The notes below the pieces were generated by a model that had not been told where the DNA came from, made no database searches, and saw nothing but the letters and a program-made list of their open reading frames with translations. A stretch of 64,000 nucleotides of DNA from a phage. Position numbers and translations under genes: made by a program. Below, piece by piece: positions 10,539 through 13,170 of the stretch; the stretch's first letter is position 1, and the number at the start of each line of letters is the position of its first letter. The stretch is from the NCBI GenBank assembly GCA_012474735.1, contig GCA_012474735.1_4085.1; one strand, written 5' to 3'.

Positions 10539-10852
10539 TATATTTCTATCTCAATGTAATCCTGTGTGATTAAATAATCCCAATGATACTTCACCTGCTT
10601 TTGTAATTCAATTAACGTAAAGAAGTTGATCGATTTATCCCATACGAGAGATTCCTGGAAAATAAATGATTCATGTTCATCGTAATAATCACACTCTAAA
10701 AAATCAGGTATATATTCACTATCGTGAATGTATTCAACAAACGAACTAGCTTGGCATTTCTTTACTACTAGTAATAATGAATTATCATGATCAAACAGAT
10801 ACAATAAACTAATTTCACCAGGGACGTACTGAACACTGAATAAGTTTTTCAT
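10538..10852 (-). CDS. F1 paralog, unknown function
   Basis: ORF; motif ESFIFQESLV. Confidence 0.6.
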   Translation of the reverse strand: MKNLFSVQYVPGEISLLYLFDHDNSLLLVVKKCQASSFVEYIHDSEYIPDFLECDYYDEHESFIFQESLVWDKSINFFTLIELQKQVKYHWDYLITQDYIEIEI

Positions 10853-11301
10853 TCTATACCTTCTGGATCTTTACGAAGTTCTTCGAAATCCAAATAAAAT
10901 CGAGGACAGTTAACACTCTTTAAGTACCACATAATAACTAATGCTTCAAGTACTTCATCATCGTAAACAGTACTGTTTTGGAAGTAATACTCTTCACTAT
11001 CCCACGGACCTTCCAGTACTTCATAATTCAAAATTAATGGTTTTTTGCGATTAATAAAACGAATGCTACCATTTTCAACATAACTAATAAATTCTGCATC
11101 TCTATTGTATTCAGAAAACGATATAGGACTATTGGAATTCAACCCAAGAATAACCCTTACACCAACGGAGTTATTATACATTTCATCCTTGTAGTAGTTG
11201 CCGTTCTCGGCTTTGTACACTTCTTTGAACTTTCCTGCCTTTATATCGTCAAAGTATCCATGTAGTTCTTTTGCTTTTTCAAGAGCACTTTGTAATGACA
11301 T
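10849..11301 (-). CDS. F1 paralog, MSLQSAL subfamily
   Basis: ORF; N-term MSLQSALEKAK; motif EEYYFQNSTV. Confidence 0.65.
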   Translation of the reverse strand: MSLQSALEKAKELHGYFDDIKAGKFKEVYKAENGNYYKDEMYNNSVGVRVILGLNSNSPISFSEYNRDAEFISYVENGSIRFINRKKPLILNYEVLEGPWDSEEYYFQNSTVYDDEVLEALVIMWYLKSVNCPRFYLDFEELRKDPEGIE

Positions 11302-11767
11302 TACCTTCTCCTACAGTATTCTCTACATATTCATAATCAAAATAGAAACTACTGGAGTCAATACTTTTGAAATACCACATAATTACAATAACATCTAATT
11401 CTTCTTCATTGTACAACGTACTATTCTGGAAGTAATATTCTTCACTATCCCACGGTCCTTCCAGTACTGAATAAGGAATGATAGTGTCATCAGCATCACT
11501 ATCTGTGTTGTAGATGGTAATATCTTCATTACGGCAATAACTAATGTACTGATTGTACATATGATATTCACAGTTATCACTGTCACCAGTATCAGTGTGC
11601 AGTACTAATGTTTCTGCACATATCTCGGACTCGTCATAATCGTCACGGTCTTTTACAAAAAATTCAGTATCAGATGTTTTATATACACCTGGTACTGAAC
11701 CTTCCTGTACCATAATCATGTACTCATGAATCTTCTTTGCTTCTTTCAATGCACTTTGTAATGACAT
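11279..11767 (-). CDS. F1 paralog, MSLQSAL subfamily
   Basis: ORF; N-term MSLQSALKEAK; motif EEYYFQNSTL. Confidence 0.65.
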   Translation of the reverse strand: MSLQSALKEAKKIHEYMIMVQEGSVPGVYKTSDTEFFVKDRDDYDESEICAETLVLHTDTGDSDNCEYHMYNQYISYCRNEDITIYNTDSDADDTIIPYSVLEGPWDSEEYYFQNSTLYNEEELDVIVIMWYFKSIDSSSFYFDYEYVENTVGEGNVITKCS

Positions 11768-12210
11768 TACAAATCCCCTGTACTTAAATATTCACATGCT
11801 CCCCAGTCAAGAAAGAATGGTTCAAAATTCAATTCCTTAAAGTACCACAACACAACCAAGGAATCAAGAATTTCTTGGTTAAAAATGAGACTCTGTTGGA
11901 AGTAATACTCTTCAGTACCCCACGGGCCATCAAGTACCCCGAAGTCAACAGGTGTATTTGTTGTGTCAAAAGTAATCTTAGTACCTGGAATATATACAAA
12001 AAAATTAGTATATTGACTACATGAAGAGTACTGTATAGTATTGTCTTTATCCTGTCCCATAAGTAAAATATCATCAGAGTATGTCTTTATACCTGATAGA
12101 TAATACTCATTACCAAATGCACTTACTTTATCACCATAGAAACCACTTTTTATGTTATCGTGGAAGTGATGTATTCTGTGTGCTAGTTCAAGTGCACTTG
12201 CTAAACTCAT
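11767..12210 (-). CDS. F1 paralog, MSLQSAL subfamily
   Basis: ORF; N-term MSLASALELAH; motif EEYYFQQSLI. Confidence 0.65.
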   Translation of the reverse strand: MSLASALELAHRIHHFHDNIKSGFYGDKVSAFGNEYYLSGIKTYSDDILLMGQDKDNTIQYSSCSQYTNFFVYIPGTKITFDTTNTPVDFGVLDGPWGTEEYYFQQSLIFNQEILDSLVVLWYFKELNFEPFFLDWGACEYLSTGDL

Positions 12211-12677
12211 ATATCCTCTTTAATAACTCGTAGTAGATCCAAGTCCAAATAGAAGCTAGGACAATCTGTATTATTAAAGTACCACAGAATGACAAGCTTG
12301 TCAAGTACATCTTCCTCGTAGATAGTATTCTGCTGGAAGTAGTACTCTTCACTTCCCCAGTCATTATCCAGTACTGAATACGGAAGATGTTTCTCTGCTG
12401 CACCAGATATAATGTCAGAATCTTGTATTAAAATATCAGCATCACGACAGAAGTACATGTAATTATCTTCCAAATTAACATCACACCCATTGAGTGTTGT
12501 TTCAGAAGAATCTAAGTTTTCTTCATACATGTGAATGTACTCACTACTGTCATCGTATCTCATTCGACAATATGATTTACCTTCCTTGAATAGATATCCA
12601 TTAAGACAATTTGCTACAATTTCTTTGCTGCATAAATCAATTAACTTCGCAATCTCTAATGCTCTTTCTAAACTCAT
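12207..12677 (-). CDS. F1 paralog, MSLQSAL subfamily
   Basis: ORF; N-term MSLERALEIAK; motif EEYYFQQNTI. Confidence 0.65.
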   Translation of the reverse strand: MSLERALEIAKLIDLCSKEIVANCLNGYLFKEGKSYCRMRYDDSSEYIHMYEENLDSSETTLNGCDVNLEDNYMYFCRDADILIQDSDIISGAAEKHLPYSVLDNDWGSEEYYFQQNTIYEEDVLDKLVILWYFNNTDCPSFYLDLDLLRVIKEDI

Positions 12678-12678
12678 T

Positions 12679-13170
12679 TCAACCCCTGTTAATACCGTTA
12701 TCTACAGTTTTCTTTACGTATTTGTAATCGAAATAGAAGTTCCCAGAACCAATACTTTTAAAGTACCACATAATTATAATAACATCAAGTACTTCATTAT
12801 CATATACAGTACTTTGTTGGAAGTAATACTCTTCACTATCCCACGGACCTTCCAGTACTTCACTCGGAATTATAATGTCATTGGAATCGCTGTCAGTACT
12901 GTTGATGGTATCTGTATCATTAATATAGACCATGTACTCATTATGCATATTAATGAAGCATTCATAATCATTAGGGTCGGTATCTAGTATGCACGTTTCT
13001 GTATCCAGTACGCACGTTTCTGTATCTGAGCAGTCATTATAAAGGAGGTTATCCGGTACATAATATTGAGTACTTGTGTCTTTGAAAACACCGTAAACTG
13101 AACCTTCTTTTGCCATATTCATGTACTCATGAATCTTCTTTGCTTTTTCCAATGAACTCTGTAATGTCAT
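12679..13170 (-). CDS. F1 paralog, MSLQSAL subfamily
   Basis: ORF; N-term MTLQSSLEKAK; motif EEYYFQQSTV. Confidence 0.65.
   Translation of the reverse strand: MTLQSSLEKAKKIHEYMNMAKEGSVYGVFKDTSTQYYVPDNLLYNDCSDTETCVLDTETCILDTDPNDYECFINMHNEYMVYINDTDTINSTDSDSNDIIIPSEVLEGPWDSEEYYFQQSTVYDNEVLDVIIIMWYFKSIGSGNFYFDYKYVKKTVDNGINRG

Follow-up and report, generated by a model that had tools for sequence, protein, structure and literature searches.

A tandem array of diverged paralogues sharing an EExYFQxS motif in an Asteriusvirus-like phage

Five adjacent genes and their relationships

The 64,000-nucleotide (nt) stretch of phage DNA analysed here (contig GCA_012474735.1_4085.1 of NCBI GenBank assembly GCA_012474735.1, referred to below as the window) carries between positions 10849 and 13170 a compact block of five related minus-strand genes, which we call g1 to g5 and which lie within a much larger array of genes for small proteins with the motif EExYFQxS. 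Because the region is 99–99.7 % identical in nucleotide sequence to phages G17, SHEFM2K and Sharanji, we assign the window, by sequence, to Asteriusvirus, that is, to a 121Q/G17-like Escherichia coli jumbo phage (a RaK2-like myovirus of ~350 kb). Positions 9000–17000 have 99.0 % nucleotide identity to Escherichia phage vB_EcoM_G17 and 94–98.5 % to SHEFM2K, phAPEC6, BF17, slurp01 and 121Q, and positions 10500–13600 have 99.7 % identity to G17, SHEFM2K, Sharanji and three Salmonella 'SD' phages. The G+C content over the first 24 kb of the window is 30–35 %.

The five genes are packed without gaps. Gene g1 (10849..11301, 150 amino acids) has its first 23 nt in common with the 3′ end of g2 (11279..11767, 162 amino acids), g2 shares one base with g3 (11767..12210, 147 amino acids), g3 and g4 (12207..12677, 156 amino acids) have a 4-nt ATGA overlap, and g4 is 1 nt apart from g5 (12679..13170, 163 amino acids). 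All of them start with ATG and have a purine-rich, Shine–Dalgarno-like sequence 5–10 nt upstream. In the overlap at 11279–11301 the last seven codons of g2 (NVITKCS and the stop) are read out of frame with the first codons of g1 (MSLQSAL); in phage ph0011, g2 is shorter and stops at the g1 start. The predicted products are acidic, with isoelectric points (pI) of 4.05–4.67 and 20–35 acidic residues per 147–163 amino acids, and none contains a hydrophobic or membrane segment (maximum 19-residue Kyte–Doolittle mean, 0.8–1.2). Each belongs to the PHROGs family phrog_9317, whose hidden Markov model (HMM) all five match over their full length (E-values 1.8e-55 to 8.9e-66, profile positions 1–155 of 160 or better), and nothing sets them apart from that family. 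Since phrog_9317 has no functional annotation, membership leaves the function unexplained, and the homologues are listed as 'hypothetical protein' in every annotated record among the 37 matching phage records.

A first-pass annotation, made from the letters of the window alone, had described these five open reading frames (ORFs) as a locally amplified subfamily with conserved termini and a centre that differs most among the copies, and to this extent the alignment bears it out: the ORFs lie where it placed them, all on the minus strand, and they align end to end. The N-terminal sequence M[ST]LxS[AS]LExA is common to g1–g5, as is the C-terminal block VL[ED]GPW[DG][ST]EEYYFQ[NQ]S..[YF]..E.LD.[LI][VI][IV][ML]WY[FL]K...F[YF][LF]D, and the likeness, far from being confined to the short motif SEEYYFQ[NQ][SN][TL]x[YF] that all five carry, covers both termini. 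The C-terminal block is encoded by five in-register copies of a conserved 145-nt 3′ segment (10882..12865, minus strand, encoding GPWDSEEYYFQ...WYFK...FYLD), which have 65–78 % nucleotide identity and a spacing of 437–484 nt. An HMM built for the subfamily matches each of g1–g5 with E-values of 1e-59 to 1e-71, and even the most divergent pair, g3 and g4, is recovered by BLASTP (E-value 1e-17). Judged by these comparisons the homology of the five genes is beyond doubt, their likeness being far above chance.

The copies are nevertheless not 'near-identical', as had been stated. Pairwise protein identity ranges from 29.5 to 58 % and aligned nucleotide identity from 48 to 70 %, the longest identical tract being a 46-nt run common to g1 and g5 (VLEGPWDSEEYYFQ). 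The closest pair is the non-adjacent g2 and g5 (58 % amino acid identity); g3 is the most divergent of the five (30–33 % identity to the others), and g4 has a 10-residue insertion of its own after the N-terminal helix. The reported Asp/Thr/Cys-rich insert is a fair description of g2 and g5, whose centres contain 16 % D, 10–12 % T and 4–5 % C; it applies in part to g3 and g4 and does not hold for g1, where the corresponding values are 2.7 % D, 0 T and 0 C.

Age of the duplications and turnover of the block

The five genes had been taken as near-identical products of recent serial duplication with a hypervariable central segment; as an explanation this would mean a recent burst of tandem duplication and a (diversity-generating) central cassette that now evolves fast. 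Adjacent, co-oriented genes of similar length at such regular spacing would suit this explanation, as would termini that are better conserved than the centre, a 21-nt repeat indel in g5 and the 46-nt run shared by g1 and g5. Comparison with the orthologous regions of phages 121Q, ph0011, UE-S1, fEgEco12, A4, Turkey5 and WPEC5 makes it very improbable. All five genes are present in the same order in 121Q (gp370–374) and UE-S1 (323–328), and in a neighbour-joining tree of the copies from the window, 121Q, UE-S1, ph0011 and fEgEco12 each copy groups by position, at 69–98 % identity, and not with its neighbours. The window copies and the non-orthologous copies of the same phages are mostly 27–43 % identical, rising to 56–61 % for the g2/g5 sister pair. 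Nei–Gojobori estimates of synonymous divergence (dS) run from 1.26 to saturation between paralogues and from 0.09 to 0.74 between orthologues, and positional orthologues exist in phages that differ by up to ~17 % at the nucleotide level. The orthologue-wise clustering, together with the saturated paralogue dS, indicates that the amplification is older than the Asteriusvirus radiation; since neighbouring copies are only 30–58 % identical, concerted evolution is excluded as a source of the apparent orthology. A burst would also sit poorly with ratios of non-synonymous to synonymous divergence (dN/dS) below 0.5, with a positional orthologue for every copy and with a copy number that is essentially fixed at four to five across the 37 records.

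About 26 of the 37 phage records keep the full five-gene block, and a comparison of copy number among related isolates, which had been suggested as a check on recent duplication, goes against it, with five genes in 26 of 26 records at 88 % identity or more and four-copy blocks confined to more distant clades. In fEgEco12, Turkey3, ph0011, vB_Ec-M-J, WPEC3, WPEC5, TH47 and CMSTMSU the match stops at the end of g4, and g5 is absent or replaced in the fEgEco12/ph0011/WPEC clade; its slot in ph0011, fEgEco12 and WPEC5 holds a 61-residue ORF and a short-form member of the superfamily described below. Phage A4 has four strong members, and Turkey5 has one strong member and three weak relatives. Turnover in the block is slow birth-and-death rather than ongoing amplification. 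The g5 slot, with both ORFs, spans L002 5303–5898 in ph0011 and L004 5142–5740 in fEgEco12, and its short-form gene encodes 137–138 amino acids; the array has here undergone cassette replacement.

Whole-gene dN/dS values against orthologues, from crude pairwise estimates, are 0.06–0.48, and indicate purifying selection on the orthologues. The central third is usually the least constrained (omega mostly 0.05–0.76, noisy on such short segments), and in some comparisons the centre of an orthologue evolves ~1.5–3 times faster than its termini. With whole-gene values this low, 'hypervariable' is too strong a word; the centre is instead a region of relaxed or diversified constraint that differs strongly among paralogues, and not a population-level hypervariable cassette. 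Only one length polymorphism was observed among the compared orthologues, at a tandem repeat in g5 (12980..13026, minus strand; 21 nt, 2.2 copies) that encodes DTETCVL/DTETCIL and comprises two units in both the window and 121Q but a single unit in UE-S1. That g5 is dispensable in a whole clade could be taken to mean that these genes are decaying, non-functional leftovers of genome expansion. We give this explanation scarcely any credence: the reading frames are intact in all records examined, the dN/dS values are those just given, the Shine–Dalgarno sites and the start/stop coupling are conserved, and the motif is kept across genera.

Between g4 and its counterpart in fEgEco12, dS falls from 0.88 at the 5′ end to 0.03 at the 3′ end, and strong variation of this kind along single genes points to mosaic recombination among phages. 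Gene conversion between copies, which had also been proposed as a check, gave weak hints only, namely the 46-nt run of g1 and g5 and the 3′ end of g1 in ph0011 and fEgEco12, where the last 120 nt are as close to g2 (78–80 %) as to the window g1; the shuffle test used here has no control for the conserved region, and these hints are accordingly not decisive. Elsewhere in the array, an 85-nt direct repeat occurs at 13810–13894 and 14339–14423 with 96 % identity. Its second copy forms the 5′ end of an incomplete ORF of 54 residues (14260–14424), in which the opening 27 codons of the short-form gene at 13536–13892 are repeated. The repeat thus marks a truly recent event within the array, either a partial duplication or a recombination scar. 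Alignments of the window to Sharanji and to the Salmonella SD phages break off at ~13.9–14.4 kb.

The EExYFQxS superfamily and its predicted fold

The five genes form one branch of a larger array. A motif scan combined with an iterative HMM search of the window ORFs retrieved 36 superfamily members, so that the array spans 865..23636 with at least 36 co-oriented minus-strand paralogues, g1–g5 included; long forms are ~150–210 amino acids in length and short forms ~100–135. The nearest long-form relative outside the subfamily is at 9784..10233 (minus strand, 149 amino acids, phrog_12674; E-value 4e-10 to the subfamily HMM), and three short-form members of 119, 118 and 123 amino acids lie directly upstream of g5 (13180..14263, minus strand). 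In G17, five further ORFs at 315–320 kb, just past the left edge of the window, match the superfamily HMM weakly (E-values 5e-8 to 2e-4), and the array therefore probably runs ~5 kb beyond the window, with ~40 members.

Outside the five genes, identity to g1 falls to 13–25 %, and the adjacent F and Q of the motif are invariant in all 22 long forms and in all 14 short forms. The consensus E-E-x-[YF]-F-Q-x-S-[LT]-[ILV]-[YH] is carried by 140 of 145 database representatives, whose median pI is 4.7. As a criterion for the superfamily we use the invariant F-Q within the broader pattern [DE][DE]x[aromatic/aliphatic]FQxS[LT][ILV][YHFW], to which g1–g5 conform. Across the 36 copies the F and Q codons are divided between TTC (21) and TTT (15) and between CAG (21) and CAA (15); such free variation of synonymous codons shows that the constraint acts on the protein, and conservation of the motif at the nucleotide level, whether through recombination or as an RNA signal, was rejected for the same reason. 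Rfam and tRNA scans over the whole window were empty and thus lend no support to a reading of the conserved block as an RNA element.

PHROGs places the relatives of g1–g5 in several sister families (phrog_12674, 13866, 15629, 34017, 30243 and 28680), which have in common with them the motif, the predicted order of secondary-structure elements, size, acidity, strand and position in the array. They differ from g1–g5 in sequence, the identity being the 13–25 % noted above, and the short forms are without the N-terminal helix; even so, profiles of the long and short forms align with an hhalign probability of 91 % over the core of strands plus motif. As PHROGs keeps these families separate, the link between them as one superfamily is newly drawn here.

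An AlphaFold2 model of the g2 protein, built on a 56-sequence alignment, has a mean predicted local distance difference test (pLDDT) score of 86 and a predicted template-modelling (pTM) score of 0.83. Its elements are a helix at residues 3–22, seven strands between 28 and 97, short helices at 99–103 and 109–115, a helix at 121–135, a strand at 141–144 and a helix at 146–152. The second short helix, 109–115, is the EYYFQNS motif and is modelled with a pLDDT of 95–97, and the variable D/T/C-rich part is a low-confidence loop (43–45) followed by a beta-hairpin. A model of a short form (pLDDT 86.7, pTM 0.83) has the same order of elements minus the N-terminal helix. A common predicted fold is kept by all copies, consisting of the beta-sheet, the motif helix, a long amphipathic helix and a terminal strand, with an N-terminal helix added in the long forms; the sequence differences among the copies are concentrated in the region of the beta-sheet.

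The motif also resembles a protease site. Sites for the NIa protease of tobacco etch virus (TEV) and other potyviruses read E-x-x-Y-x-Q-(G/S), with a variable residue at the position of F, and the neighbouring gene at 9784–10233 reads EEGYFQGS. We rejected the idea of a TEV-type protease substrate: in g1–g5 the Q is followed by N or Q, not by G or S, and the model places the motif within a confidently folded helix, not in a linker. The F that varies in TEV sites is moreover invariant throughout the superfamily, and the resemblance is treated as coincidental.

When 1.84 billion representative proteins were scanned with HMMER, 156 clusters were found at an E-value of 1e-3 or below, all with proteins of 55–210 amino acids; since no cluster protein exceeds 210 residues, there are no domain fusions among them. 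The subfamily proper accounts for 41 clusters, from Asteriusvirus genomes or from 'E. coli' contigs of ~350 kb that are taken as phage genomes on the basis of their size and of matching phage entries, and more distant superfamily members are found on metagenomic contigs of up to 351 kb. A tblastn search with two of these distant members found phage EJP2 alone for one and nothing for the other, and a scan of IMG/VR with the subfamily returned 121Q itself only. Searches of Pfam, NCBIfam and PADLOC at E-values up to 1 gave a single 13-bit chance match for g1–g5 and nothing above a curated threshold, and no sequence or fold relative was found among Protein Data Bank chains, which include DNA mimics of the Ocr/ArdA type, anti-CRISPRs and SUKH/Imm immunity folds. 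Structural matches in BFVD are limited to uncharacterised proteins of 121Q, RaK2, GAP32, Serratia phage BF and SP27, the template-modelling (TM) scores to the 121Q and RaK2 relatives being 0.55–0.76. We consider it highly probable that g1–g5 are ancient tandem paralogues within phrog_9317, forming one branch of a superfamily of ~36–40 members whose small, acidic, soluble, non-virion proteins occur only in RaK2-like jumbo phages.

Genomic context, possible roles and parallels

The array sits in a non-structural, small-gene part of the genome. Downstream of it in G17, on the same strand, are genes for RNA ligase A, polynucleotide kinase, DNA ligase, an N6-adenine methyltransferase and phosphatases. 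Phage fEgEco12 has direct terminal repeats of 20,993 bp, confirmed by restriction mapping (PMC13070987); its cluster lies at 38.8–40.7 kb, ~18 kb inward of the left repeat of 21 kb, with transcription directed away from the left end. In Pseudomonas phage PA5oct, RNA sequencing showed that the early genes are blocks of small uncharacterised genes in or near the terminal repeat (PMC7318152). This phage belongs to a related clade, in which the unidirectional small-gene blocks near a terminal repeat of ~20 kb are the ones transcribed first, and the timing for Asteriusvirus is an extrapolation from it.

Jumbo phages of this clade contain many uncharacterised structural proteins and related arrays of structural genes, as seen in the phAPEC6 paper (PMC7247149), and g1–g5 might on that account be virion, scaffold or assembly components, for example of hairy tail decorations or of the large capsid. 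This is most unlikely given the non-structural surroundings of the array and the phAPEC6 virion itself: in the accessible end of its mass-spectrometry table the entries pass from gp347 to gp549, with no product from gp348 to gp548, and the subfamily member is gp442c (PMC7247149). In the text of the same paper Gp44 is the sole gp4xx product mentioned (PMC7247149).

The explanation that we favour, by a modest degree, is that g1–g5 are old, diverged paralogues acting as early or middle host-interaction proteins. The array came from old tandem duplication, followed by birth-and-death under purifying selection, and has changed since through loss or replacement of g5 in one clade, the 7-residue repeat indel and perhaps short conversion tracts. 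The five genes may be co-transcribed and translationally coupled, and they could be expressed early or in the middle of infection along with the downstream RNA-ligase, polynucleotide-kinase, DNA-ligase and methyltransferase genes. Their products would be cytoplasmic binding proteins for host takeover or counter-defence, in which the conserved core might serve as a scaffold, or as a site for a shared partner, while each paralogue might owe a target of its own to the divergent surface of the sheet. The functional portion of this explanation (co-expression, early or middle timing, and binding in host takeover or counter-defence) is tentative, with somewhat under an even chance of being right. Several points weigh against it. 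Early timing is argued from position and from a distant relative, PA5oct; a structural role alone, such as that of a helix cap with core aromatic residues, could account for the invariant motif; and the crude pairwise dN/dS values carry no sign of positive selection, which weakens an arms-race reading. A scan for sigma-70-like promoters and terminators over 8–25 kb showed no enrichment over shuffled sequence (91 promoters, against 104.8 expected) and speaks neither for nor against this explanation.

A more specific proposal is that the proteins are acidic mimics of DNA or other nucleic acids, or other decoy inhibitors, similar in action to Ocr and ArdA, with each paralogue directed at a different host defence system. 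Ocr and ArdA are small, strongly acidic, cytoplasmic, phage-encoded anti-restriction DNA mimics that are typically expressed early, and RNA-repair and methyltransferase genes such as those adjoining the array act in counter-defence in T4-like phages (T4 PseT and RnlA against PrrC). The low pI of g1–g5, their character as small, soluble, non-virion proteins and the multigene diversification, which fits an arms race, all agree with this proposal. We regard it as unlikely. No similarity to Ocr or ArdA was detected in sequence or structure, and neither of the two is known to occur in dozens of paralogous copies, in contrast to the EExYFQxS superfamily.

Alternatively, the EExYFQxS helix may be a docking site for one shared partner, such as a host chaperone, a protease, RNA polymerase or a phage protein, and the family would then consist of adaptors that bring different cargo to it. 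The F and Q are invariant, and the two E residues and the S nearly so, across paralogues otherwise only 13–25 % identical; this conservation is at the level of protein and not of nucleotide, and polar residues kept so strongly would be unusual in a purely structural element. The motif is, however, modelled as a confident regular helix packed between the sheet and the long helix, as a folding nucleus would look, and no domain fusion hints at a partner. Docking of this kind is doubtful, if somewhat more plausible than mimicry. About the same modest chance attaches to a fuller version, in which an undescribed superfamily, present in ~40 copies per genome in RaK2-like jumbo phages and folded unlike any protein of solved structure, docks a common cellular or phage partner through the EExYFQxS helix and captures different host targets with its divergent beta-sheet face.

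The surroundings of the array in the window have several further features. Up to ~50 kb the window has minus-strand genes and negative GC skew; from ~50 kb onward it has plus-strand genes and positive skew. Between 24 and 52 kb few ORFs reach 180 amino acids. Interspersed with the EExYFQxS array and upstream of it is a second, unrelated family of proteins of 63–96 amino acids with a '[LV]G[TS]xxQ[ED]' motif, encoded on the minus strand at 8886–9077, 9055–9273, 21871–22137, 23626–23901, 25144–25386, 25355–25606, 25578–25832, 26265–26555 and 26558–26824. The interval of ~1.2 kb at 23901–25144, between the array and the members of this family beyond it, contains no ORF of 80 or more amino acids and no Rfam family or tRNA. 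At 33842–34483 (minus strand) a 213-residue ORF has a weak, sub-threshold protein-kinase-like match (Pkinase, E-value 0.003). Seven consecutive plus-strand ORFs of 358–433 amino acids at 54915–63422 all have RCC1-like beta-propeller repeats (PF25390, PF00415, PF13540), and by size and position they are probably the counterparts of the phAPEC6 paralogues annotated 'DNA condensation protein', two of which, gp549 and gp551, are virion proteins.

Asteriusvirus phages are under development for E. coli therapy, and more than 80 % of their genes are unannotated. Some 40 of these genes (~25–30 kb, or 7–8 % of the genome) belong to a single superfamily united by its invariant motif and its one predicted fold, so that one structure, a mutational study of the F-Q pair and an interaction screen could together bring annotation to much 'dark matter' in the genome of each RaK2-like jumbo phage. 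With respect to the first-pass annotation, the five genes are old, stably inherited, specialised paralogues and represent neither an ongoing amplification nor a hypervariable cassette. If the docking of a common partner combined with varied targets proves correct, the superfamily would be the counterpart, in phages, of the multigene families of adaptors that large eukaryotic viruses encode.

A search of the literature found no description of the superfamily, its motif or its size; its RaK2 and GAP32 relatives were recognised structurally, and the papers found on paralogue expansion in such phages, as far as they were searched, do not describe it. The superfamily is an undescribed case of a documented phenomenon, the expansion of paralogues in jumbo phages. 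The phAPEC6 paper credits Hua et al. with the proposal that jumbo genomes grow by tandem duplication (PMC7247149), and described examples are RaK2, in which ~10 % of the products are paralogues (PMC3622015), CBB, with 22 paralogous ORFs (PMC5259590), and Bacillus phage G, with ~35 copies of a zinc ribbon (PMC7824862). In these expansions, as in the one described here, small genes have been amplified in tandem within one lineage of phages with very large genomes.

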